A stretch of 59,305 bases of DNA, filler included, from Fonticula-like sp. SCN 57-25 (lineage: Eukaryota): NCBI GenBank assembly GCA_001724245.1. It is 8 parts of 8 records of this genome, joined end to end, with 100 filler letters (N's around TTAATTAATTAA, not from the genome) between each part and the next. Parts side by side here need not be neighbours in the genome. Positions count along the whole stretch, not along the records: positions 16,902 to 23,843 come from MEDX01000407.1; 7 more parts are not named here. One strand, 5' to 3'. Made by a program: the position numbers and the translations under genes. Positions 6,975 to 55,400 of the stretch are shown one piece after another. The notes beneath the pieces are model-generated. The model was not told the DNA's origin. It ran no database searches and was given only the letters and a program-made list of their open reading frames with translations. Within the stretch, counting starts at the first letter, position 1. Every line of letters begins with the position of its first letter.

Positions 6975-7074
6975 NNNNNNNNNNNNNNNNNNNNNNNNNN
7001 NNNNNNNNNNNNNNNNNNTTAATTAATTAANNNNNNNNNNNNNNNNNNNNNNNNNNNNNNNNNNNNNNNNNNNN
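6975..7074. other. Artificial contig-joining spacer (N44-TTAATTAATTAA-N44)
   Basis: Identical 100-nt spacer with stops in all six frames; recurs seven times in the window. Confidence 0.98.
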
Positions 7075-9121
7075 AATGTACCGTAGCCGTGAGTGCCGCC
7101 GTCATAGTAAGCGGGGTTTTGGTCAAAGCGGGCGCGCGTCGTCACCGAATAGTGCTAAAAATACCATATTAGAGACAATATTTATATCAAAAAATAAGCA
7201 ATTTTATATCAAATTCGTACCTGATCGGCGACGAGGATGAGCGGCGTAATGCGATGATGATTACGGTAATGATACCTTTCCAAAACAAGTTCACTTTCCG
7301 ACGCGTTTTCCTTCTTGTAAATGTCGTAATTGACCGCATTGGCGCTCAGATTCGCATAGACCGCATCAAGCGCTATCAAACCATATCAGAAAATACTGCA
7401 ATTTGATTGGTCAAGCAAAGGTCGTACCGCCCTCGTTGGGGATGATGGCCGTCACCGGCGACCAATCAACGATCGTCACAGTGCTCATATCGATGACGTC
7501 ATCAAGGAAGATCATGTGCGATTGGGTCGTCTGCGTCATGCCGTGATCGCCCGTGATGATGATGTCAACCTTGCTGGTGCGGCCAAGTGTCTCAATGCCG
7601 TCAACAAGGCGCTTGATTGCGTCATCAACTTCCTTCATCGCATTATCAACCTGGCCACGTGGTTAGAACAAAGGCAAGAAATAGAATGAGAAAGAGCAAA
7701 AACATTGATTTTCATTGGCTAAAGAGGGCTTTTCATTGGCTGGGAATTGCAAACTGAACGATTCCCATAGGCTATTCAACACATCCCATTGGCCATTTAA
7801 CGCTTTTCATTGGCCATTTCTTTCCTTTCCCTTTCAATTTCACTTTCACTTTCACTTTCAGTTTCCCTTTTCCTTTCCCGCGCACCTCAACCGAGTCTGG
7901 CCCATACGAGTGCCCCGCCGTGTCAACACCCTCAAAATAGAGCGTGATAAACTGCGGCCGCTCTCCACTATTGAAACCGAGCCACGTGAGCACTTGGTCC
8001 ACGCGGGCAGTGGCCGCCATAGAAGAGTCATATGGCATAAAGTAGGAGGGGCGGATGCCTTGGATGGGCGCCTCGGAGCCGGGCCAGAACATGCAGGCGG
8101 TCTTGAGGGAGTTGAATTCCATCGTGTTCCAGAACTAAATATTACGGTAAGATTACGGTAAAGTTACGAGGGAGTCACGTGTATAATACACAATAATGAC
8201 CATGTGGATATATATGGGTTACAACACACATAAAGCATAATATGTAAGATGAGGCCATATGGACCATTGTAAGACGGCAATCAAAATATGAAACATGACA
8301 GACATGAACATCACATGTAAATCAACCACGTGGCCATGTATCATGCAACAAAACCACCAATTTCCACGTGGACAGTCTCAAAAAGCCTCTCATTCCACTA
8401 CACGCGACACTCGACAACCCACGTGTAAAACGTACCGGTTCGCCGCCCCACCAGCTGGCATCGGTGATCGCCTCCTGGTTGCTCAGCGAAAAGTGCTCGT
8501 CGGTGATTGGGTCATACATGGTGTTGGAGACGATGCCGTGGGACTCGGGGTAGAGGCCTGTGACTATGGTGTAGTGATTCGGGAAGGTCTTGGAGGGGAA
8601 GGACGGATGCATCATGGTCGTCGAGACGCCACCAGCCGCTACGAAGAATGAGTAAAGAGGTAAAAGGCAATTGAAGCGTAAGCATAATAAAGGTAAAAAT
8701 TGCTTATAGAACACAAACTGGAATGAAATGACTGCCAGATCGACATCGGGACTCGACATCGGAACTCGCGGGATCCCTTCCGACCGACCCGATGCGTACC
8801 GATGCTGCTGATCGTCGGCGTGATGTTGCGGTAGAGGTAATCGTGCCTGAACCCGTCCAAAGAGATCAGAATGAGAGTCGTGTCCATCTTGCGACGCGAG
8901 GCACCCACGATCAGGACCACAACAACCACGACGATGACAAGGAAGAAGATTACAATCGAGATGCCCTTGCTCTTACGGTACCATGGCGTCTTCTAAACAA
9001 TGAAATATAGACGCGTTAACGGGATCTGTGTGGATATCAAGCAAGGTACCTTGGTATTCGACAGGAGGTCGTCAGATTCGTCGAGCAGCCCGTCGTTCGA
9101 GATCGCCTCCGACGGCATCAT
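7075..9121 (-). CDS. Ectonucleotide pyrophosphatase/phosphodiesterase (ENPP, type I phosphodiesterase), type II membrane anchor, 3' end truncated
   Basis: Motifs ILISLDGFRHDYL, PSFPSKTFPNHYTIVTGLYPESHGIVSN, WWGGEP, FWPGSE, LYFEGVDTAGHSYGP and IITGDHGM lie in successive exons. A hydrophobic helix precedes the catalytic domain. Confidence 0.92.
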
Positions 9122-9282
9122 GTCGTCTCGAGCCACAACAGACTCGTCACGTGACGTGTACAACTCGATTCCCAGAATCTGCCCTAAACCAACTTAAATC
9201 CACCCCTGATTCTGCCCCAAACAAGTTCCTGTCATCAAACGTCTCTCCCCCTGGCGGCGGCGCCGACCGAGGCCTGCCTCCG

Positions 9283-12200
9283 ATGGGAATCCCAAAGTTT
9301 TACCGCTGGCTCTGTGAGCGCTACCCGCTTGCTTCTCTCCCCGTGAGCGAGCACGACGCGCCGCCCTTTGACTCACTCTACATTGACCTGAACGGCATCC
9401 TGCACCCGGCCGCGCATCCGGATGATGACGCAATCGCCGTGGGACCGCATCGGCCGGAACACTTGATTTACGTGGCAGTATTCAACCACATCGACCATAT
9501 CGTACGTCACTATAGCCATGTGTGAATGTTGTAAGTGAAAAAGGGATGTTTTACCAAACGACCGGCCATCATCGTGTGCCTCTACCTCCTATGAACATTC
9601 GTATTTGGAGGTCGCCCTTTGCCTTAACCACCCTCTAAACACTCCTCTCTGTGTATTCACTCTCTATTTGATATTTAGTTTCGTCTAATTCGGCCGCGAC
9701 GCCTTGTCTTTATTGCCGCGGACGGCGTCGCACCCCGCGCCAAGACCAACCAACAGCGCGCTCGCCGCTACGCCGCCGCCTCTGCCGCCTCTTCCTCTGC
9801 CTTTGACTCGAATGCCATCACGCCCGGTACCGCCTTTATGGACCGCCTCGGCGCTCACATGGCGTACTACATCAAGGCGCGGCTGCATGTCGACCCAGCG
9901 TGGCGCGGCGTCACGGCGGTGTACAGCGGGTGCGACGTGGCAGGCGAGGGCGAGCACAAGATCATGGAACACTTGAGGGGAAGGGTTGGTGAGGCAGCAA
10001 ATGAGGGCATTTGTATATACGGGGCGGATGCGGTACGTGGCGCGGGGTGATTGATGGGAATATGTGTCTTTTCTGACACACTCGTAGGACCTAATTCATC
10101 TTATGCTTGCTTCGCATCTTCCCCGCATCGCCGTCCTCCGCGAAGATGTCCGCCGTGGCCGCTCCGAGTCCCTCTTTCCCTACTGCCGCTACCAACTCAT
10201 CACCGCATCTGTCCTGCGCGACTATATCGAAAAGGAGTTTCTTTCCCACGTGGCCACATCATCCAACCTTGAGCAAGTCATTGACGATCTTGTTTTGCTG
10301 AGCTGCTTGGCGGGAAATGACTTTTTGCCCACGTGTGCAAGTCTCTACATTGCCGATGGCGGGATGGATGTACTGTTTGAGGCGTATAAGCGCCACATGT
10401 CGGGTGGGGGAGGGCCGCTGAATAGGGCGGGTGTCGTGGACACGTGGGCGTTGGGGATGCTTTGTGGGGGGCTGGCGATGCAGGAGAAAGAGTTTGTTGA
10501 GGGGCGGGAGGCGAACATTCACGCTTTTAGAAAGGAAAAGGTACGTTGTGTAGCATGGAACGCAATGTGTCGTTGATTTCTTGTTTGCATCATTATGTCC
10601 ATTGTTGTGCAATATCATAACTAAATGCCCATTTTCTGATAGGAAATGAGAGGCGAATCGACTGAAATCGCGGTCGAAATTGCCGAATTGGCCTTTGATA
10701 TTTCCTATTCTCGCCCCTGTAAGCAAAAACTGCTTACCATTGACGACAAGCAGTACATTTTGACTCCTTCCCGCCTTTTTTTGCTCTGCGCTCTCCACGA
10801 ATATCTTCGCAGTTCATCCCCTTTTCTCCACATTCACCCCGCCATGCTGCCACAGCCCGGTGACGCCGACTTTGTATGCGCCATGGCAGAAGAAGCCGGC
10901 CTTGATGTTGAGCACTGCGACGGCGGTGCACTGCGCATTGACCGTGGTGAAATGGACGTTCAGTTTGCGGGGCTTACTTTGCGATCTTTTTGGGACATTA
11001 TTGGTGCAGAGCAAGAGAGTATTGTGGTCAATGCGGCCGCCGATGACTATTTGCTAAAGAGGGCGGTGTATTATATGCAGCGGTTTGATAATGTTCATCC
11101 GAAAAATGCACACAGTGTCGCACAAGACTACTTTAAAGGTGCGAATATTGCGCTTGTTTTTGTTGCTAAATACGATTGTAGGTCTTCAGTGGGTTATGCA
11201 CTACTATTATGGCGGTGTGCCATCGTGGGAGTGGTACTACCCGCACCACTATGCCCCGCTGCTCGTCGACATGCACCATGCAGCAGCGGCGATGCGAACT
11301 AGCAATCAATTTGCGTCATCATTTAATATGGGAGCGCCTCTGCCACCGCTCGTGCAGTTGCTCGCCGTCCTTCCGCCTTTATCTGCTCAGTACGATAATT
11401 GGCTTATACTCGTATATTGCTGACACATCACAAGTTTGCTACCAGCGCCACTTCAGGCGCTCATGACGGCGTCTGATTCGCCGTTACAGCGCTTTTACCC
11501 CGCGTCGTTCCGCGCCGACCAGAACGGCAAGATCGCCGACTATGAGGCAACCATTCTGCTTCCCTTTGTGGACATCAATGCGCTGCTTGACGCTGCGATG
11601 CCAATTATAAGCACACTGTCTGCGACTGCACAAGGCAGTACAATGACGTACATGTACAGCAAGGGTGCGGCAGTGGCGAATGAGGCGCCGCACGCGTGCT
11701 ATGAAAAGGTGTCACCGGTAAGTGTGAATGTGCGGCCGTGTTTTGTGAGCAGTGGCGGGAAGCGGTTTGGCGGGCTGCCGCGCAACGCAAAGGTGCGCTT
11801 TTACTTCAAGTTGTTTTTGCTGATGATGTGCAGGTGGAGTGGCCGTGGCGCGATAGGTTTCCCACAATACGACATGTGAGTGCGACTGCGACGCTGAAAT
11901 GCATCGGCGCAAAGATCTTTAACCGCGAGAGCAGGAACGAAAGGCGCGTCATTATTGATATTTTTTTCCTTGCTGACATATGTGATACAGTTTGGCGCTG
12001 ACGATACAATGGGACGCTGCTGCCAATGAATCAATCGATGCCAGTGTGTCGCTCCTCGGCCGCTATGTTTGGGTTGGCTTTCCCCGTTTTCTTGTCGGCC
12101 GCGTGTCGTACATTTTGCGAGCGGAGGGCCGCTTTGTTCCATCCTTCTCCAATGACACGTCATCAGTATATGATGTGGAATGGCACACGCCCGAGAGCCG

Positions 12201-14057
12201 CGCCGACTACAACAAGACATGCGCGACAATATCAACTATGTTTGCAAAGGTGTTTGGCCTCTTGATAGGCCGCGTGACGACGCTGATTGCCGTTGAATGC
12301 CCTGACTTTGTCTCTGCACCATCGTGGATGAAGCATGATGTCACCAAGGAGCATTCAATAGTACTCGTGCCAGCGGGGCTCGCGTTCAAGGATGACTCGT
12401 TGACCGACGCGGACCTTTCTACGTGGCCCGAGCATGACCAGCCAATGGTGGGCGTCAAGGGCGGGCGCTGCTATGCCAAGTCAGCGTGGCTGTCACAGCC
12501 AGTCGAGGCGCGCATATTTGCCGTCATGCAGCGCTACAGTTCGTACATTGTCGAGATGAAGCAAGGCGGCGTTCTTGAGCGGGTATGTTGTTTGTATTGT
12601 GATGTTTGGCTTATCTTTGGTGATTATAGGTGCCCGCGGCAGATGTTTTTTTGGCGGAGGAAGATGACGATGAAGATGGTGGCGGAAGGAGTGTGGGCGC
12701 GTCGTCTGGTGTATTGGACTATGAACAGGCACTACAGATGCTACCGGTGAGCGAGCGTCAGTGGACAATCAGTGGCGCAGCGGATATGATTGTTGATCCC
12801 GATGGCCGCGTGATGAGTCTTGTACCGATCGACGAACGCCACGGGATTTTTCGCTGCCCATTGGACGATGCGCATCAAGGAGGGACGCGCGTGCAGCTCA
12901 TTGAGCACTTGAATGATCATCACAGGCATGAACGGATTGCGCCCGGTCGACGCGCGGACACACGCCGAGCCGACCACCGTGACGTCGAAATGCCTGAAAT
13001 TGGTGCATTTGTACCAGCATCTGCAGAGTCTGATGCGATGATTGATGCTTCAGCATCAGCGAGTGTTGCTTTAGAATCAACTATCAATGCTCCTGAACCA
13101 GTGATGTGGAATCGATCAGAAGGGTCAGAGTGGTCCCGTGGCGTGCAAGTACAGCAAGCAAGCAGGCGACGTGCCCCTTGGAGCAGGTCGCTGGACGACT
13201 ACATGAAGACGGACATGGCGGCATTGCTTGCCTCGCCGCCAGAGACGATTCGGCTCAAGCGAAACGCTGACGGCGTCATCATCTGCCCGTTTGCCCCAAA
13301 GCACCTTGTACGTCTCTTGAACACTTTTCCGCGCATTCTCACTGTGACGTCATAGATTCCGGTGGCATCATTTCGCAAGCACTTTAGCCAAAAGCACTTT
13401 ATTCTGCTCGATCGATACGTCTTTGATGAAGCGGCCGTTACGCTGTGGGCATTTGACGATGCCGACGCGCCCTTTATGGCAAAGCAAGAAGAGGAATCAC
13501 GTGGTGCAACGGCTGATGTAGCGTATGATCGATCGGAGGAGGAGGAAGACGAGCTGGCGCAAGCACAGGACGACCCGCTTGACTATGTGCAAGGCTGGCA
13601 GGAACCGCAGCATTTTGATCACGTGACTACTGTAGCGAGTGACGCGCATTCTTTCCATGGGTCTGCTGGGCGCGGGCGCGGGAGAGGCCGCGGGAGAGGA
13701 CGAGGAAGTGTCGTTTTTGCCGCGCAGCCGCCGCATCACGCGGTACGACAAGTCTATTTTTTGCCTGTTTCTGACATGATGACGTAGCCAATCAGCGCTC
13801 CTGTGTACTACCCCCCTGCATCAGCGCACACTCAGCCATTGATGCATCAACCTCCTGCAACGGCCTATCTGCCGCCATTAGCTGCTTGGGTCGAGCAGTG
13901 CCAGCTGCCGGCGCAGTGCTTTGAACTGCTGTGGGTTAATGGGTTTGACAATGTGGAGCTGTTGGCGCAGCTTACCGACGCAGAGATGAGCGAGTTGTAC
14001 TCATTGGCTGCCGCGAGCTTGCCGCTCAACTCGCTGCGAGTAAACAATGTGTACTAG
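9283..14057 (+). CDS. XRN-family 5'-3' exoribonuclease (XRN1-like) with extended atypical C-terminus, multi-exon
   Basis: [95 protein letters not shown]. Intron 12583-12629 joins the body to the downstream ORFs in frame. Confidence 0.88.
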
Positions 14058-16801: not shown

Positions 16802-16901
16802 NNNNNNNNNNNNNNNNNNNNNNNNNNNNNNNNNNNNNNNNNNNNTTAATTAATTAANNNNNNNNNNNNNNNNNNNNNNNNNNNNNNNNNNNNNNNNNNN
16901 N
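16802..16901. other. Artificial contig-joining spacer
   Basis: N44-TTAATTAATTAA-N44. Confidence 0.98.
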
Positions 16902-18041
16902 TCTTCCTCGCCGTATACGGCTGGAAGTACATCAGCGCCATCGACGCATCCAGGTCAAAGGTGCGAAGCAGATCGGGCGTGATGACGTCATCAATGATAT
17001 CTCAATTGGGCTTGATGCTGATGCCGATCCGCCGCAGAGTATCGGGCTGCCGTCGGGGAGCTCGCTCATCCACTTTAAGGTGTTTTACGTGGTTGCCATG
17101 CTCGTGTTCAGCTTTAGGTTCATATTCGATTTCGTGGCGATCAGCTTTAGCTACGAAGGCGATGGCGGCGACGAACCCTTTGGCATCGTACGTACAAATG
17201 GGGGAGAAGAAGGAAGGGGAAATATGTATATATGCTTTGAATATGAAATATGGGATATTTGTGCATGTAAATTGGCCATTTTTGTGTGTAGATAAAAAAT
17301 GGACATATATTGTATTTTGCGCACATTTATCGTATGTCTTGATTCTGACCATGTTTGCATTTCAATAGGACAACAAGTGCCTTCCGGATGTCTTTAGCTT
17401 CTTTTCGCTGGTCATTTGGGAAATGGTCCCTGTCGCCATTCTCCTCTACATGTTCCGAAAGATATCCGCTCATAACTGTAATATCTATTTATATTGATTC
17501 GTATATGATACATGTTCATATGGCATGCCGTGCTCATGTGTGTCCTGATTGGTTACTTGTGATATTTATCATGTTCCTATTGGCTATTTAAACGTTTCCT
17601 TGACTCTTTTTTCGTACATTCCCGCCACGACGCCTCGCTTCGCCTACATCTTTGGCGGCGCCGCCGAGCCGCTCAACGGCAGCTACATGCCCGCACCCGG
17701 TACGCCCTTTCTTCCTTTCCCGCCACTTGTCACCCCCCGATCTCACCCCCGACTCTGCCCCTGACATAATTTCTCACATTTGCGCACTTTTTGCTTCACT
17801 TTTGCTTCACTTTTCAGGGTCAAAGTACGCGCTCGGCGGCAGCCCGTACGACGAGGCCGACAGCGGGTACGGCCCGAACGCGGTCCACCCGAGCAGGTCG
17901 CACGACGGCACGCTGGACAATAGCCTGTCGCTCGGCGCGGAGGGCGGCGGCGTCGGGGGTAGGCTGCTGAGCTATGGGTCGTCGCCGGCGTCGCCGCTGG
18001 GGGCGGGTGAGGGGGGGAGTGCAAAGAGGAGATATGAGTAG
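16902..18041 (+). CDS. Multi-pass (7TM-like) membrane protein, GPR137/THH1-TOM1-like, C-terminal part
   Basis: Spliced reading FLAVYGWKY...|...FKVFYVVAMLVFSFRFIFDFVAI...|...FSFFSLVIWEMVPVAILLYMFRKI, followed by a Ser/Gly-rich tail. The last helix resembles the E..P...L..FR pattern of this family. Confidence 0.5.
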
Positions 18042-18326
18042 GGGGGAAAGTGTATCATTAAGGAGAGGTGTATAATGTTTTGGTGCTCTTTTATATCTAT
18101 TTGCAATGTATTTACAAGCAATTCAAGGGTAATGAAAACAAGGTGAGCAAATTGACAGGTTGTCTTCAGATAGAATGAATGCAGTCTGGTCCACAAAACT
18201 GCCATTTTTGAGTCGACTTCTACTATATCTACTGTTCATGTTGTGAATGTATCTTTCTCCTTCTCTATTCAAAAACACCAAACAAAACGACTATGTACAA
18301 GCCAAATATGTTACTTCCCGGATACC

Positions 18327-18672
18327 TCACCGCGATCTGGCGGCCGGGATGGCGGATGCCGCACCCGGCGCCGGCTCGTGCACCAGCTTGGCGCCGCGCT
18401 CCACAAAGTCGGACCACGCAAGCAGCATGGACGTGTGCGCGTCGAGCGACGCGACAAGCGCATTGGCGCTCTCCACATTCTTGGTCACCGTCGAGTGAAG
18501 CACCGTCAGGTCTGACGCAAGCTAATGCCGTGAAATGAAAAACAAATCAGGAAAACAACATTCAAAAAGACAAGAATAGCAAAATAGCATTATTAAATTC
18601 GTGTCAGTGAATGTGAATAAGGTCAAAAATAGGCGAGGAACGCACACGCTCGAGGTCGCGCGCGTCCGCCAT
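18327..18672 (-). CDS. Small (~73 aa) two-exon coiled-coil protein, possibly a DASH/Dam1-complex subunit
   Basis: ATG at 18672, MADARDLER|GTGCGT...CATTAG|LASDLTVLHSTVTKNVESANALVASLDAHTSMLLAWSDFVERG...RSR*. GC-rich coding-like exons flank an AT-rich intron. Confidence 0.55.
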
Positions 18673-18769
18673 GCCGCCGACAATTTGCGCGCCAACAATT
18701 AAATCACGTGACGTTCGCGCGCTTTTTTCCGTTTTGTTGCGCCCTTTGCCGTCGATCGCGCGGCGGCAT

Positions 18770-19775
18770 CGGCCGGTTCCTTGCCGCTTCCCCGCGCTCT
18801 GCTTTCCCTTTTCCCTCTCTTTATGTCCCTCGCTCTGTGTGGTTCCCCTTTCCGCGCTCCCCGCGCCGGCCTAAAGATGGTCAGCTCGCGTCGTGTGCGA
18901 GGAGGGCCAGCTCTAACCCTAAGGCATATCTAATGAGGCGAGCATGGCAAAGATGATGGCAATGTTGTGGTCGGTTTCCGCCCTCTCCCCTTCTCTCCCC
19001 TTCCCCTTTCACCCGAAGGCGCGGCGGGGGCGAGTCGGGGCGGGGGCGTCTGCTTTTGTTTGGTTCCGGTTGAGGCGCCTTTCTTTGGTTTTCATGGCGG
19101 GTTCCGACAGTGCCCCGCGCACGCAAAAACAAAAACCCAAAAACCTCAAATGAAAGGCATGCCCTGCGGACGGCGCGCGGGTCTGTGCTGGCCGGGGGGA
19201 TCGCGCGGATGTGGGGGGATGGATCGAGTGTGGGATCGGGCCTGGCATGGCATGGGGATGTTGCCGCGGCAGGACACTGGCTGACGTCATCAGCATCATT
19301 TCCCTTTCGACCTATTTATGTTCAAAAACGGCGCCCACGGCCGCTTCAGCGCCCTTTTCTTTCCTTTCGGGGCTTCTCCCACGCGCCTTCCCACGCCCGG
19401 CGGGGTCTGTGAGCGCGCCGCCCTTTCCGCGCACACCGCCCCGGCGCATCGCCCCCGCGGGCCCGGCGGCCGACGCAGGGGCCTCGCGCCACGCGGCTGA
19501 AGCGGCGCGCGAGTGAGAGGCCCGGCCTCGCGCCCCTGCCCGCCGCCGGCCGAGCGGGAGGCAGCGCCGGGGGGGCGGGAAGGGCGGTGCGTATACGCGC
19601 CCGTCGGACAGGGAGGGGTAGGGAAGGATGGTGTGTGGCCACGTGGGTGCGCGGGAAGGGTCGGGGAGGGACGGCGGGCGGCTCGCGTGACGAGAAAGGC
19701 GCGCGGCCGCTGCCCGCGGTGATGGCCATGTGGCCGGTGAGCCGTCGGGCGGCGGTTGTGCGTAATTCTGATGAG
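18770..19775 (+). ncRNA. Candidate telomerase RNA (TER)
   Basis: Template CTAACCCTAA at 18913-18922 with a hairpin just 5' (18878-18909). Crossing helices and U-rich/A-rich tracts at 19051-19158. Enclosing helix 18851-18870/19187-19209. Three-way junction 19475-19539 with a GAGG-CCCGG-CCTC hairpin. No convincing ORF. Ends are estimates. Confidence 0.65.
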
Positions 19776-19860
19776 CCATATCGGATACTTGTGAGCGTAT
19801 ATGTTTCATGTGTATATTTGGCAGTAGACTGTGTCCATAGAAGGATAGGGCACTGCGTAC

Positions 19861-19968
19861 TGATAAGGATCTGATAAGGATGTGATAAGGGACCGTGATA
19901 TGGTACATGTGGACCGGTAAGGTACCACTAATATGGAAGTGTGTACTGATAAGGCACCACTGATATGG
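19861..19968. repeat. Degenerate TGATA(A/T)GG repeat cluster
   Basis: TGATAAGG at 19861, 19872, 19883 and 19947; TGATATGG at 19896 and 19961. Confidence 0.8.
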
Positions 19969-20223
19969 TATAGTGACCACATGAGGATATTTTTGATACT
20001 GTGTGGCTATGGAAAGCCAAAGGTGAGATCGATTGAAAGGCAAAGGCACAAAGAAAATTGCGTAAAGCGAAACTAAAAGTTTAAAGCATATCTCATATTG
20101 AATATTAACGTAAAGATGCACATATAAAATGATTGATACAGCCGAGCAAATACGCTCATATAGTAAAACACAAACACCCACACTGGGCAGCGCGAAAGAG
20201 CAACAAAAGTGTACAAAAAATGT

Positions 20224-21045
20224 CTATGAATTGACGGCCGCGCGCTTCTGCGGCCTGTGCAGCGACGTCGCGAGCACGGACGCCGCGGCCATGTCGGCCT
20301 CGAGCTCGTCCTGCGCGCGCTTGCGGTTCGCGAGCGTCGCCAGCAGCGCCTTCTTTGTCTCTGTCCTGCTGCTCGACTGAGCGGCGGCGGTCGGCTGCGG
20401 CGCATAAAACATGGGCTGCTGCTGCTGCACGAGGCCATAGTGCATGTGCGCGTACTGCGGCGCCACGTCGGTGTAGAGCGCCGCCATCTGCTGCTGCTGC
20501 TGTGGCGCAGCAGGGAGCAGCTGCGTGGCCGTCGGCGATGCGCGCTTGAGGTGATCGACCTGCGACTGCAGCTCGTCCTTTTGCCGCTTCAGGCACTCAA
20601 TGTACTTTAGCGCAAAGTTGAGCCGCCGCTTAACGTCCTTTTCCTCGTCAACGAGCGCGGCAGCAGCAGCAGCGCTGATCGCCGACGAGCCGCCGGCCGA
20701 CATGGCGCGGTCGCTGCCCGACGACCGCTGCTGCGATCCCAGCGAGCGGATGTGATCCACCGCCTTGCGCAGGATCTCTGCCTTGCTGTGGCACGGCTGG
20801 CACGACGGGACGACGCTCCGGAGCGACTCAAAGCCGCCATTGATGTTGGCGCGGCGCTTTTTCTCCGAAGCGAGATGCGCGGCAGAGCGCGCTTCGCTGC
20901 GCGACACGCGGTCAATCGCGGCATCATCGTCGGGAAGAGGGGAAACAGAGCGCGAATAAGAGTCGACAGATGAAGAAGAGGGAGAGAGCGTCGCGTCGTG
21001 CGCGAGCGCGCCCTCGACAACGCTCAGCAGGCCCGTAAGTGACAT
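20224..21045 (-). CDS. bHLH(-Zip) transcription factor, Mlx/Max/Mxd network-like
   Basis: AHLASEKKRRANINGGFESLRSVVPSC...SKAEILRKAVDHIRSL shows the H-x3-E-x2-RR basic region of E-box binders. A heptad segment follows. Likely ATG at 21045 (MSLTGLL). Confidence 0.88.
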   Translation of the reverse strand: MSLTGLLSVVEGALAHDATLSPSSSSVDSYSRSVSPLPDDDAAIDRVSRSEARSAAHLASEKKRRANINGGFESLRSVVPSCQPCHSKAEILRKAVDHIRSLGSQQRSSGSDRAMSAGGSSAISAAAAAALVDEEKDVKRRLNFALKYIECLKRQKDELQSQVDHLKRASPTATQLLPAAPQQQQQMAALYTDVAPQYAHMHYGLVQQQQPMFYAPQPTAAAQSSSRTETKKALLATLANRKRAQDELEADMAAASVLATSLHRPQKRAAVNS

Positions 21046-21120
21046 TCCCACAGCAATGCGCAGCCGAGACGACAGCACAATGACCCCGCAGCTCAGCTCA
21101 AAAGTGGTATTCTTGCATGC

Positions 21121-21173
21121 AGCCAATCAGACACGCGCAATGGCGTCGCCTTATGCAAGCTGGCCAATCAGAC
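21121..21173. promoter_or_regulatory. Tandem CCAAT boxes upstream of the bHLH gene
   Basis: GCCAATCAGAC occurs twice (~21122 and ~21163), about 80-125 nt upstream of the ATG. Confidence 0.55.
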
Positions 21174-21791
21174 GCGAGTGATGCTATTTGAAGGCATCGG
21201 GCACGAGCTGCTGATTCTTCCTAAAAAGGAAATTGGGCGTGATGGTAAATACGCGCAAACTGCAAACTGACCCGATCGACGAGCGCTGACAAACAGAAGT
21301 CAATGGCGAGACTTTTGGTAAAGGAAGAGCAAGTCAACGACTATCGAAAAAAGAACAAAAGTGGAAAGTGGATCATTAAAAGGACTACATAAAGGACGAA
21401 TAAAGGGAATTAAATATTCATATATACGTCCACAATTGAACGAATTTTGTAATATTTATACTGGAACGTCCATTTGAACCCTCATTTTCTCAATGACCAT
21501 TGCTTCAGTCCCCCTCAATTTCAACAATCCAAACTGCCAATATGTGTTCGTATCGTGCAACATAGTATATCTATTTAAAATTCGCGGTAAACAACTACAG
21601 GGAAAGAATCCCGTGGCTACAAAAACAGTGACATGGATGGAAAGTGGTATGCAAATTTGCCCCCCTGCTCTCTACAAGCGGGCGACGCCAAAAGTAACAC
21701 AAGGCAAAACAACAACGCAAAAGCGAAAACAGCAGCTTATGATGAGCCATATGGAGAAGAGAACTGGAGAAGAGTTTGCACGTCGGCCAGA

Positions 21792-23843: not shown

Positions 23844-23943
23844 NNNNNNNNNNNNNNNNNNNNNNNNNNNNNNNNNNNNNNNNNNNNTTAATTAATTAAN
23901 NNNNNNNNNNNNNNNNNNNNNNNNNNNNNNNNNNNNNNNNNNN
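23844..23943. other. Artificial contig-joining spacer
   Basis: N44-TTAATTAATTAA-N44. Confidence 0.98.
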
Positions 23944-32917: not shown

Positions 32918-34533
32918 ATGGAGATTCCACTAGAGCCGCTGCGGGATGGCCGCCGTATTCCGGCGCCGGAACCGCATAGCCATGATGACAGTGAGCCTGC
33001 CGTTGTAGAGATGGATATGAGTGAAGGGGCGAGCATGAGCGAGGTTCAGGTTGATGGCAGTCTTGATGTCGATGATGATGGCCGGCCATTGACCCCCGAA
33101 GAGCAGCGGGAAAAGATGCAGTTTTACGCCGAGCAGGTCGTCGCGCTCATGCTGCCCATCCTGGCCACGTTTGTGCTGACGGTGTGGTGGGTGGACGTCA
33201 TCTACGGCGGGCGCAACGTCATCTATTCGTACGTCATGCCTCTTGTTTGTTGCGGATGATTCTGATGCTGTGAATAGGGGCGTGCTGCTGTACCAGGAGA
33301 GCACAGACGACTCGTTTTGGCAAGTCTTGCGCGGCTCTATCACGAACGCGCTTATTATTTTGGGAGCAGTACTGATCAGCACGTGTGTCTTTATCGCTCT
33401 CTTTTACTACAACTGCATGAAGGTGCGAAAAGTGACCGTTGTTGGCGTATCGAGAGGGAAAAACGTGTAATTATTTATGTATCTTATTTTGCCACTGTTT
33501 TTCAACTTTTCTTTTCATTAACCCTTTTTTGTCTTCTTCTTCTCTTTATTCCCAGATTATTTATGGCTGGATCGGCACATCAACGATCATGATCCTCGGC
33601 GGCATCGGCGGCATCGTCTTTTACCAGCTCCTCGCCGAGTACGATGTTGCCTTTGACTGGCCCACCCTCGTCTTTCTCCTCCTCAACTTTGCCGCCGTCG
33701 GCGTCACGACCATCTTTTGGCACGGCCCTCTTCTCCTCACGCAGTGCTACCTCGTCGTGCTGAGCGGCCTCATGGCGACCAACCTCGTCGCTCTTCCCGA
33801 ATGGACCGCCTGGGCGCTCCTTGCCGTCATCTCAATTTACGACCTTTTTGCTGTGCTTTGTCCACGTGGTCCGCTCAAGGTGCTTGTCAACACTGCGCAG
33901 GAGCGCAACCAAAGCATCCCCGGGCTCTTGTACAGCGCCGGCATGGCGCAGCGCGCGCGGTACACCCCGGCCGGCGTCTACGTCACCGTCGAAACCGACG
34001 ACGATGATCACGTGCCTGACCACATGGACGACGGTAACGTGGGCCTTCTCGAGAGTGCCGCTGCCGCTGCCGCCGCCGACGAGCAGGAAGATCTTGCCAC
34101 GATGGCGGCGGCGGCGTCCAAGCGGCGCGCGCAGGGGGGGGTCGAGCTGGCCGAGGCGGGCCCGGCGGGCGCGGCGGCGCTTCAGCAGCAGCAAGAGGAG
34201 GAGGACGACGGGGACCACCCGGTGCAGCTCGGTCTTGGCGACTTTATTTTCTACTCGGTGCTTGTCGGGCGCGCGGCGCTCACCGACTGGGTGACGGTCG
34301 TGACGTGCTCATTGGCGACCATGGTGGTACGTGCATGTGATTGGCGAGAAAACGATTGCTGACCAATGACGTTGTAGGGGCTGTGTATTACGCTGTTTTT
34401 GCTGGCGCTGCAGAGGAAACCGCTGCCGGCGCTGCCGATCAGTATCGCGTTGGGGATCGTGTTTTACTTTGCGACGAGCGCGTGTGTGAGTCCGTTTGTG
34501 GCGGCGCTCACAGTAAAGGGTGTGCATATTTGA
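32918..34533 (+). CDS. PSEN: Presenilin (gamma-secretase catalytic subunit)
   Basis: [23 protein letters not shown] (YD), [10 protein letters not shown] (GxGD) and last-exon LPALPISI (PALP). Stop TGA at 34531-34533. Confidence 0.96.
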
Positions 34534-52416: not shown

Positions 52417-55400
52417 TTGGCGTCCGGGTCCATCTCGTCGCCAATGTCGTCCTCGTTCGGCAGCGCCGGCCGCAGCAGACGAATAAGGGCAAGCTCCTGC
52501 TCATACTTTTCAAGCAGCAGAACCGTTTCAAGCCTAATAACTGCTTCAGTATACTAAAAATAGGCAAGAAAGGCGCACGCTTCTAATTGGACCTCGTAGG
52601 CCGAGATGACGCGCTGGGCAAACTCGTGGCGGTCGCTCACCATAAACTTGCGCGGTGATTGGTGCTGAACAGAGATGCGGAAGCGCCACGCGAGGTTTTT
52701 GCGAAGCGCGCTCGCCTCGGCATCAACATCACGCTCAAGCAATGACACGTCATCAGTGATTCTGTGAAAGTAAAGAGGAAAGGAAAAAGAATGGGCGGGA
52801 AAGTGAGCAATACAACCCAATTATGCATCAATAAATACGCACGGCGTTGACGGCTCTTGTTGTCTAAATAGAAACTCTGCGTCACGCAAATGCACCTTTA
52901 AGAGAATCTCCTTTTCGACGTTGACCACAACCGACTCACCCACGTCAAACTCGAGCGTCAACTTGACGAGCGCCCCCACGAGCGCGCCCTCTTCCGTCAG
53001 CCTCATAAGCAGCCTCGACGCGTGCGCGCTCGCCGGCCAATCAACGGCCACCGTCAACAAATTCCGCGACGTGACGCACTCGATTTTTTCTGCCTCAAAC
53101 ACGAGCATGTCGAGCCGGTTCGACTCGTCGTGCTGCTGCTGCTGGCCGCTGTCAGTCGTGCCGGCGGCGGCGTCGACGAGCCGCAGTGGGCCGAGCACGA
53201 GGCCGAGGCACTGCTTTGGCACGATGCGCGCGGACGCGGCGGCGGCGGCGGACCGCGGCGCCTTGGCGTCGTCGTCAGCGTCAAAGGTGAGCGACTTGCC
53301 CGGCGCGATCTGGAGCACGAGTCGGCGCTCCTGGCCGTGGCGGAGGTGGTGCACTTTTTGGATGGCGTCGGAGCGCGTCGAGTAGTCGACGGCGGTCGGC
53401 GACCACGCGCCGTCATAGGAGAGCTCGCAGACGTCGGATTGGACGGTAAAGTCAAACTGGACGGACGACTTGAGGGCGGACGATGAGGCGTCAGAGGAGG
53501 ACGAGGGGAGTGCGGGTGACTCGACAAAGACTTCAAAGGCGAGGCTGTCGATCGAGCAGCGTGCCAGGAAGGCTTCGGTCACGGCGCTCTCGGCAAACAC
53601 ACTGTGCAATGGTGAGTATCAGAAAAGCAACTATTGAGATAATGACAATGACATGAAGATATTGGAGACAATAGACAAGACAATAGACAAGAAAGTCATG
53701 CCAACAGGAACAAAATGTCCAATAACTAATACAATAACCCATTCAAAAATAACGTACCAATCGTGCGAGAGGGTTGCGCTTCCTGAAATGACTTCAATGC
53801 GCTCGGTCGATTGTGTTGTCTGGTCCAGCCAGACGTACCGCACAAACACGCTGCTTCCCTGCGCGACACTCTCGTCCATGCCATTAAGCGACGCAAGCCG
53901 CATGCGGTACGCGAGCGGCTGGTCGAGCAGCTGCGCTGCTCCGTCGGCGACAATACTTGACTCGGTCAGCTCGCTGCCGTCGGCCGCGCACGGCGAAAAA
54001 GTGACCGACAAGTGGCATTGAACGGCGCCGGCAGAGTCAAAGACGGGTACGCTGCGCGAGAATGGCGCGCGGAAACGCACAAATTGGAGGTACACGTGGG
54101 CGACGCCGAGCACGCGCGCGCTGCCGCCCTCATCGGCATTCGAAAAGGGGTCCTCGCCGCCGTCGGGCGACATCACAACTTGCCCCGCCGCACCGCTGAA
54201 ATGACAAAAAGTACAAGAAAACGACCAAAAAGTGAGCTAAATAGGCAGAAATGAGTCAAATTCGGACCTTCCTTCTTGTTCCATGTGCGTGAGCCACATG
54301 TCGCGCATGACACCGAGCCGCTCGAGAAACTTGCTTCTCGTCCAAATACGGGACTTCTGGCTGCCCAAGTGCGTGACGCGCACCGATGGCTCCCCTCCCC
54401 TCACCGACAGCGCCCCCGACGCGTCAAACGCGCGCAGCGGCACCTCGGTCGACAGCGAAATCTCAAACACCGTGTTGCGGTGCAGCGCCTGACTAATTGC
54501 ATTAGCTTCATTGGTCGACTTGAACAGCTTTACGAGCTGCGCCTTGAGGTCCTCCTGCGGCACTGCCGCGCGGTCGCCGACGCTCCCGAGCAGCTCCGAC
54601 ACATTTGACTGCGCCTCGGCAAACTCGCGCTGCGCAAATGTCCAGTCGGCGCCCGCGGCGGCGCTGCTGCTCTCGGCGGCCTCGAGCGGGTTGCTGAAGC
54701 GGAACATGTGGTTTGTGCCGAGCAGCACGCGGTCGCCGTTCGCGAGCACCGTCGCCGACGTCAGCTGGTGGCCGTTGCGGTACACGGCAGCATCGCCGAC
54801 GGGCGTCAGCGTGACCTTGCCGTCGGCGCTGTCGAGCACGCAGTGGCGGTCCTGGATGTTGAGGCCGCTCAGCTGGATGACGGGGGCGGAGGCGTCGGCG
54901 TCGGGGGCGTCGGCGGAGCGGCCGACGTGCGTCTCGCCGTCGGCAAGGTAGTAGACAAGGCACTCGGACATCATTGGGTCCTCGTTGAGGTTGACGAGGT
55001 AGGGCTTGCGGCGGTCGAGCTTGACGGCGACGCCAGTGGTCTCGAGCATGTGCGTGCGGTCGCGGAGAAGCTGCTCGGATCGGCGAAGTTTTTCATTCCA
55101 GTCTAGAAAAGTAAGGAAAATGGGGTGAGAATGGGTGAGAAAGGAGTGAAAATGGGTAAAAAGGAAGCAAACCCAATCAAAAAAGTACAAAAAGAGTGTC
55201 AATAAATATAATACAAAAGTGCGCACCCTCGCTCATGTCTGCAAAGATGCGCTCCGACTGGGCCAACTGGTCGCGCAGCGAGATGATCTCACGCTGATCG
55301 TCGTCGTTCCTGATAAGCGGCGAGTCTGGCCCGCTCGCCCCCCCACTCACCATCGCCTTCAACCTCTCGATCTCTGCGCGCAGCTCTCTCACAAGCTTTG

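Follow-up and report, generated by a model that had tools for sequence, protein, structure and literature searches.

The stretch of DNA analysed here (59,305 nt of the Fonticula-like sp. SCN 57-25 assembly GCA_001724245.1, filler included, called "the window" throughout) contains seven pairs of 44-N runs recurring approximately every 7 kb (616 N; 6975-7074, 16802-16901, 23844-23943, etc.), which have the look of masking rather than of assembly gaps, and the locus of interest lies on its plus strand, between two neighbouring genes. On the left, the nearest plus strand coding sequence ends near 18041 by our own reading of the sequence, and there is an apparent small two-exon gene on the minus strand (18327-18673; ATG near 18673, second exon at approximately 18327-18521) that has no Pfam match; the start of this gene near 18673 is divergent from the candidate RNA described below, and a CACGTG sits at approximately 18699-18704 in the upstream region that the two share. 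On the right, a bHLH gene (20224-21045) turns its 3′ end towards the candidate RNA. Ten reading frames that overlap the locus or flank it (17604-20223) were all without a Pfam match, and one of the two frames further upstream (16850-17368) gave a sub-threshold match. As no plus strand gene adjoins it upstream, the candidate RNA seems to be a unit of its own, situated between the minus strand gene and the bHLH 3′ end. A tRNA scan of the window returned none. Just downstream of the locus, four of the seven TGATAAGG motifs of the window (GATA-factor-like; approximately 0.8 expected window-wide) are crowded within 94 nt (19861-19954), a stretch that is also among the most variable ones in the related strain X2.

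The most conspicuous element of the locus is a long arm (19301-19671, plus strand), a 371-nt predicted rod of 74% GC with 26 helices that together hold 141 predicted base pairs (18 G-U). Among these are, from the base towards the tip, 19301-12/19659-71 (with three G-U pairs and one bulge), 19331-39/19642-50, 19413-30/19575-92, 19439-47/19564-72 and 19460-70/19542-51. The arm had been pointed out in a sequence-only reading, which proposed nested helices leading to a CR4/5-like junction; every pairing that it listed is indeed present at its coordinates, the minimum-energy fold reproduces all of them, and the comparison with dinucleotide shuffles that it had suggested comes out in favour of the arm as well. 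The plus strand folds at -240 kcal/mol, compared with an average of -205 (sd 6.1) over 100 dinucleotide shuffles (z -5.69, with 0/100 shuffles being as stable), whereas the minus strand reaches -213 kcal/mol (z -2.99) and is, thus, 27 kcal/mol less stable. A genomic control, in which 553 windows of 371 nt were folded on both strands (1106 folds) and the energy was regressed on GC, placed the plus strand of the arm as the most extreme of all the GC-corrected sliding folds (residual -46.6 kcal/mol, 3.6 sd), with four adjoining plus strand windows also found in the top ten; the claim of a long arm has, therefore, held up. When the 5′ side of the arm is compared with the reverse complement of its 3′ side, mismatches of the G-U type outnumber those of the A-C type by 11 to 3 (one-sided p 0.029), and a self-BLAST of 18600-20000 against the window revealed no DNA-level inverted repeat, repeat family or further copy. 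Taken together, the plus strand fold outlier, the G-U bias and the missing DNA inverted repeat indicate structure at the RNA level on the plus strand, and we hold it very likely that a structured plus strand RNA arm is real.

Upstream of the arm, on the same strand, there is a template-like motif, CTAACCCTAA (18913-18922), which amounts to 1.67 repeats complementary to TTAGGG and is the single match in the window (0.04 expected; at least one copy in 4 of 100 shuffles). It lies 132 nt upstream of an 8-bp U-rich/A-rich complement, which, in turn, precedes the arm by approximately 170 nt: UUUUGUUU (19054-61) has its exact complement in AAACAAAA (19127-34), which is located inside the loop of a hairpin (19077-92/19140-58) whose helices were taken from the minimum-energy fold. 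The former is the sole U-rich 8-mer of the window that has an exact complement 20-150 nt downstream. Such an arrangement of U-rich and A-rich strands is the layout of an H-type pseudoknot, and a pseudoknot-type element may accordingly be drawn at 19054-19158 on the plus strand, with the reservation that the pseudoknot itself is our own reading of the complementarity and not a program prediction.

The minimum-energy fold of 18757-19790 (1034 nt, judged by energy alone) additionally predicts a long-range helix, the pyrimidine-rich 5′ strand of which (18757-18868, plus strand) pairs with the G-rich 19171-19284, so that the template-like motif and the pseudoknot-type element would both be enclosed in the manner of a core-enclosing helix. 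Folded alone, 18840-19300 is not more stable than its shuffles (z +0.43). A 213-nt metatranscriptome contig aligns to 18774-18969 and spans the template-like motif, in a library that may include contaminating DNA.

Directly 3′ of the arm, a second strong hairpin with an 18-bp lower stem occupies 19699-19763 on the plus strand (z -3.65, 0/200 shuffles as stable), and it may represent either the 3′-end domain of the RNA or an alternative TERT-binding stem-loop. No Rfam family matched the window at the gathering threshold, and no telomerase family was seen in 17500-21500 at E values up to 10, where the sole permissive match (20654-76, E 6.2) was to an unrelated bacterial sRNA and was discarded. 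Rfam includes a vertebrate telomerase model, and covariance models usually miss the telomerase RNAs (TERs) of new lineages, because of which this null result is weak evidence.

The tip of the arm is where the locus becomes most difficult to judge. CR4/5 is described as a template-distal three-way junction of the helices P5, P6 and P6.1 (PMC3592445; this and the other articles cited by accession are drawn upon here in part), in which P6.1 has 4 bp and a 5-nt loop of the consensus NUNGN, with the U and the G required for activity (PMC3592445), and in which an invariant A separates P6 from P6.1 in vertebrates and fungi (PMC4993307, PMC8096264). The predicted three-way junction at the arm tip (19475-19539, plus strand) is closed by a P5-like helix, in which GCAGGGGC (19475-82) pairs with GCCCCUGC (19532-39). 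Within it, a P6-like stem-loop (19483-19513) begins with 7 bp formed by CUCGCGC (19483-89) and GCGCGAG (19507-13) and continues past a 2x2 internal loop into 3 bp capped by a 7-nt loop; a UGA linker (19514-19516) and a P6.1-like hairpin, GAGG-CCCGG-CCUC (19517-19529; 4-bp stem, 5-nt loop), follow on the same strand. The minimum-energy and centroid folds of the tip concur on the order P5, P6, P6.1, and the pair probabilities of P5, P6 and the hairpin are 0.97-1.0, both for the arm alone and in the 1034-nt context. The tip alone is more stable than shuffled sequence (z -2.6 to -2.7; for 19475-19539, z -2.59 with 3/200 shuffles as stable).

The sequence-only reading had regarded this junction geometry as specific and as supporting a telomerase RNA independently of the template, while conceding that high GC raises chance pairing. 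The descriptor used to search for junctions required a P6 stem-loop starting 0-2 nt after P5, then a 4-bp stem closing a 5-nt loop and the P5 return, each of these two set off by a spacer of 0-5 nt; in its loose form (P5 of at least 6 bp, P6 of at least 5 bp), it matched 441 of the 500 shuffles made from the region, which is 74% GC. Raised to the strength actually seen (P5 of at least 8 bp, P6 of at least 7 bp), it matched 74 of 1000 shuffles, and in 39 of 1000 if a G at loop position 4 was also demanded, and the window itself contains 17 junctions of the observed strength (10 on the plus strand and 7 on the minus strand). The specificity claim fails because both the shuffle and the whole-window controls yield junctions equal to the one observed: the geometry does not convincingly exceed chance and is marginal on its own, the junction evidence by itself is thin and does not back the telomerase RNA call independently of the template, and whatever meaning the junction has comes from its context.

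The P6.1-like hairpin is a similarly mixed case. Its loop, CCCGG, does have the G at position 4, with C in place of the consensus U at position 2, exactly as had been noted before. Loop positions 1 and 5 are predicted to pair as C-G with a probability of 0.98, so the hairpin would rather fold as 5 bp with a 3-nt loop, and the hairpin alone (19517-19529) does not exceed shuffles in stability (z -1.19). A19516, which adjoins the hairpin, occupies the position of the invariant A between P6 and P6.1 of vertebrate and fungal CR4/5; this is weak evidence, as a linker of 3 nt may well contain an A by chance. A 4-bp/5-nt hairpin with a NUNGN loop is absent throughout 18757-19800, where all ten hairpins of this size with a G at position 4 lack the U, and, therefore, there is no better P6.1 candidate in that interval. 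The vertebrate-type P6.1 motif AGAGTTGGGCTCT, with up to three mismatches allowed, has four matches in the window (12.9 expected), none of them near the locus. What stands of the CR4/5-like tip is, thus, the helix order (P5, P6, linker, short hairpin) at a position 3′ of the template-like motif, and what does not stand is its specificity and its loop U. The junction order, the 4-bp/5-nt hairpin and the linker A are as in CR4/5, and the template (18913), the pseudoknot-type element (19054-19158) and the arm (19301-19671) come in the expected order within what is itself a candidate TER, whereas the loop departs from NUNGN; as it is the defining loop U that fails, the tip is called CR4/5-like here and is not classed as a member of CR4/5.

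The DNA was derived from a metagenome, and contigs of four sequencing runs were aligned to 17500-20500 to see how the locus varies. Compared with the related strain X2, contig alignment delimits a low-diversity block at 18833-19749 (plus strand), in which one difference is listed in 742 covered bases, as opposed to 30 in 1359 flanking ones (p 2e-5; p 8.5e-4 without one divergent contig, and p 0.016 by the most conservative count). The contrast is uneven, as a 341-nt flanking stretch (17961-18301) has no differences either; this stretch consists of the end of the plus strand gene and AT-rich sequence downstream of it, and the stretches neighbouring it differ from X2 by 2-4%. Of the four variants that occupy predicted paired positions inside the block or immediately 5′ of it, three keep a G partner (18812 U>C, 18831 C>U and 19750 C>U), the last of these falling in hairpin 19699-19763 with its pairing to G retained, and the fourth (18832 G>U) breaks a predicted pair in the long-range helix 18757-18868/19171-19284. 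Zero differences are listed within the arm helices in X2, the listed contigs of which omit 19212-19236 and 19529-19678; with no listed variant inside them, the arm helices are neither backed nor contradicted by variation, and X2 is silent on the 3′ half of the arm, since 19529-19678 is uncovered by the listed contigs. The sequence does recur elsewhere: an X5 contig is identical over 19479-19727, and X3 contigs have 0 and 1 difference over 19694-19995. Short pieces of 35-40 nt with 5-8 mismatches were also returned, and these were set aside as spurious GC-rich matches.

A search for a homologous locus among the metagenome contigs, anchored on the bHLH gene, gave 599 pattern matches, none of which was confirmed. 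Three loci having the template pattern (L001-L003) were considered as possible relatives and rejected as chance matches, because the sequence that they share with the window is limited to an 18-mer and their GC content is 35-52%. Covariation between such loci is the customary proof of CR4/5 helices, and the two scans yielded no homologue of the locus for it.

As regards the organism itself, the best named matches of its peroxidase are chytrids, Glomeromycota and Balamuthia (58-69% identity); INO80 is 50-54% identical to early-diverging fungi and 49-52% to animals, and none of the named matches of presenilin exceeds 51% identity. Nearer proteins come from metagenome assemblies, which encode a peroxidase of 84-93% identity (P0002, P0004) and a presenilin of 99% identity (P0241). 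A quick INO80 tree (11 fungi and 6 animals, built without an outgroup) put the query on a long branch outside the fungi with a support of 97. Apart from presenilin, the window encodes a kinesin-3-type motor tail (FHA, DUF3694), XRN1, V-ATPase subunit D and an NFACT protein, and the regions of these side genes include 33436-34359, 52824-55232 and 9004-12747. A eukaryotic gene set with weak identity to named proteins points to an unsequenced eukaryotic lineage, and, judging by these comparisons, the host would be an unplaced eukaryote from close to the base of the animal-fungal section of the tree. Telomerase RNAs diverge fast, and each new lineage has needed experimental discovery. In the literature searched, which included part of a review (PMC12133305), we came across no telomerase RNA described for chytrids, for other early-diverging fungi or for Amoebozoa, and the host lineage being one without a described telomerase RNA is what makes the candidate worth following.

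Considered as a whole, the region is best described as the template-distal arm of an approximately 1-kb non-coding RNA gene on the plus strand (about 18757-19763), which is most likely a telomerase RNA. The template, the pseudoknot-type pairing and the arm, as the distal element, follow each other on the plus strand just as they do canonically in TERs, and the three features, each of them unique in the window (the template motif, the U-rich/A-rich pairing and the arm as the top fold outlier), fall within 800 nt. The evidence that the surroundings provide for a telomerase RNA gene is fairly good, and it is from the pairings, their stability and strand bias, the element order, the low strain diversity and the RNA-library contig that we infer the nature of the RNA: the locus is likely to encode a telomerase RNA, and the arm probably belongs to it. 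The further step, namely that the arm tip is the CR4/5 equivalent of this RNA, is a tentative one, on which we lean slightly towards doubt. The locus is at present a candidate and not a demonstration.

If the tip does act as a CR4/5, its mode of action can be sketched by analogy. The rod of approximately 140 bp would keep the three-way junction distant from the template/pseudoknot core, and at its end, the P5-like helix would stack beneath the P6-like stem-loop, with the short hairpin branching off 3′ after the A-containing linker. [quoted passage not shown] The arm tip would, in other words, bind TERT, and this second RNA-protein contact would be required for catalysis or boost it. Within such a scheme, the short hairpin would be a true P6.1 homologue despite the C that replaces the consensus U.

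Several other explanations have to be weighed against this one. The closest of them accepts the locus as a telomerase RNA and takes the tip to be something other than CR4/5: the arm would serve as a spacer particular to this lineage or would hold an accessory protein, and TERT would be bound either by an eCR4/5-like stem-loop lacking P6.1 or by another hairpin, such as the one at 19699-19763, which is significantly stable in its own right (z -3.65). A loop without the conserved U, an interval (18757-19800) without any NUNGN hairpin and a junction geometry that is frequent by chance all fit this explanation, and distal elements without P6.1 are known (PMC5175330, PMC4993307). Still, the tip shows the CR4/5 order in full, junction A included, and its fold is very well defined thermodynamically, and the distal elements of known opisthokont TERs end just such arms 3′ of the pseudoknot (PMC3592445, PMC9564094). 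We regard this explanation as unlikely. It is somewhat less likely again that the RNA of the locus is structured and non-coding but has nothing to do with telomerase (a lineage-specific lncRNA or a long hairpin precursor) and that CTAACCCTAA is a chance match. Chance did produce the 10-mer in 4 of 100 shuffled windows, and neither the window nor 17500-21500 has an Rfam telomerase family match; a chance reading has to accommodate, however, three window-unique features packed into 800 nt of one strand and ordered as in a canonical TER, as well as an RNA-library contig that spans the template itself. As for a hairpin precursor, hairpin-RNA loci carry near-perfect duplexes, unlike the heavily interrupted stem of this arm with its 26 helices, bulges and 18 G-U pairs.

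One could also suppose that there is no functional RNA structure here at all, the arm being a by-product of locally extreme GC, the remnant of a DNA palindrome or untranslated sequence that belongs to a gene nearby. At 74% GC, the arm is made of sequence that pairs readily, and the tests at the level of the junction are weak, both of which suit this supposition. It is nevertheless very improbable: shuffles and the other high-GC segments of the window fold far worse, the plus strand is 27 kcal/mol more stable than the minus strand, self-BLAST detects no DNA-level inverted repeat, and diversity is below that of the flanks.

Should the preferred reading, that of a telomerase RNA with a CR4/5 equivalent at the arm tip, be right in its strongest form, the locus would be the first telomerase RNA of a deep-branching lineage, one placed outside the sampled fungal phyla and animals by the quick INO80 tree, and it would have a CR4/5 whose P6.1-type loop contains a C for the essential U. 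This conjunction we regard as rather unlikely. CR4/5 with an essential P6.1 has been argued to have arisen along the animal-fungal lineage (PMC5175330, in the part consulted); were the strongest form true, the origin of the P6.1-bearing CR4/5 would move to or before the animal-fungal base, and the "invariant" U of P6.1, which all of the described P6.1 loops carry, would prove replaceable. A validated telomerase RNA of this host, if it had a CR4/5-type junction and the altered loop, would add a data point on when the second TERT-binding domain gained P6.1, and would also bear on which of the P6.1 nucleotides are indispensable.

Set beside the known systems, the candidate resembles each of them in part. 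The eCR4/5 of echinoderms and trypanosomes is template-distal like the arm, being an activity-stimulating stem-loop remote from the template core, but, in the accounts available (PMC5175330, PMC4993307), it has no three-way junction, whereas the candidate has a well-defined predicted one; it is to eCR4/5 that the arm would correspond if the short hairpin were not a functional P6.1. The budding yeast three-way junction (TWJ), as far as it is covered in PMC8096264, shares with the candidate the junction as such and the conserved junction A, the yeast one being bound by the TRBD and the CTE, and differs in having long helices (the P6.1 of Candida has 8 bp), where the third helix of the candidate is short, and in that activity can be TWJ-independent.

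The TERs of filamentous ascomycetes and fission yeast are large Pol II-type RNAs of 1-2 kb, with a vertebrate-like P5/P6/P6.1 near the 3′ part, and are comparable to the candidate. According to the available text of PMC3592445, their P6.1 loops are NUNGN, or of 4-5 nt in fission yeast, the TWJ helices have covariation support in 74 species, and P6 together with P6.1 suffices in trans; the candidate, by contrast, is one sequence, and its loop has C2. Neither an Sm site nor a splice site was recognized by inspection as a 3′-end signal at the candidate locus. The TER of Ustilago maydis (UmTER) is comparable in size (1291 nt, compared with approximately 1 kb for the candidate) and similar in layout, having a T/PK domain followed by a distal CR4/5 (nt 1042-1141) with a subdivided P6 and with P6.1 (PMC9564094, in part). 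It is cut from the 3′ UTR of the Emi1 mRNA (PMC9564094), while the candidate has no adjoining upstream plus strand gene. The Ustilago P6.1 stem is AGAG/CUCU, and the Ustilaginales motifs CE1-3, as given in the consulted part of the same source (PMC10035886), were not seen by eye at the candidate.

With regard to vertebrates, no H-box motif was found by eye in 19672-19760, the candidate arm, at approximately 140 bp, is far longer than its vertebrate counterpart, and Rfam did not match it. The P6.1 stem of vertebrates, which we take to be AGAG/CUCU, as the sequence-only reading quotes for the human one, differs from the GAGG/CCUC of the candidate, as does the loop U from its C2. Known opisthokont TERs carry their distal element on the tip of an arm of this kind, 3′ of the pseudoknot (PMC3592445, PMC9564094, as far as consulted), and it is in this architecture that the candidate and the vertebrate CR4/5 are most alike: an arm placed 3′ of the pseudoknot, helices in the order P5-P6-P6.1, a 4-bp/5-nt hairpin, a G at loop position 4 and an A in the linker.
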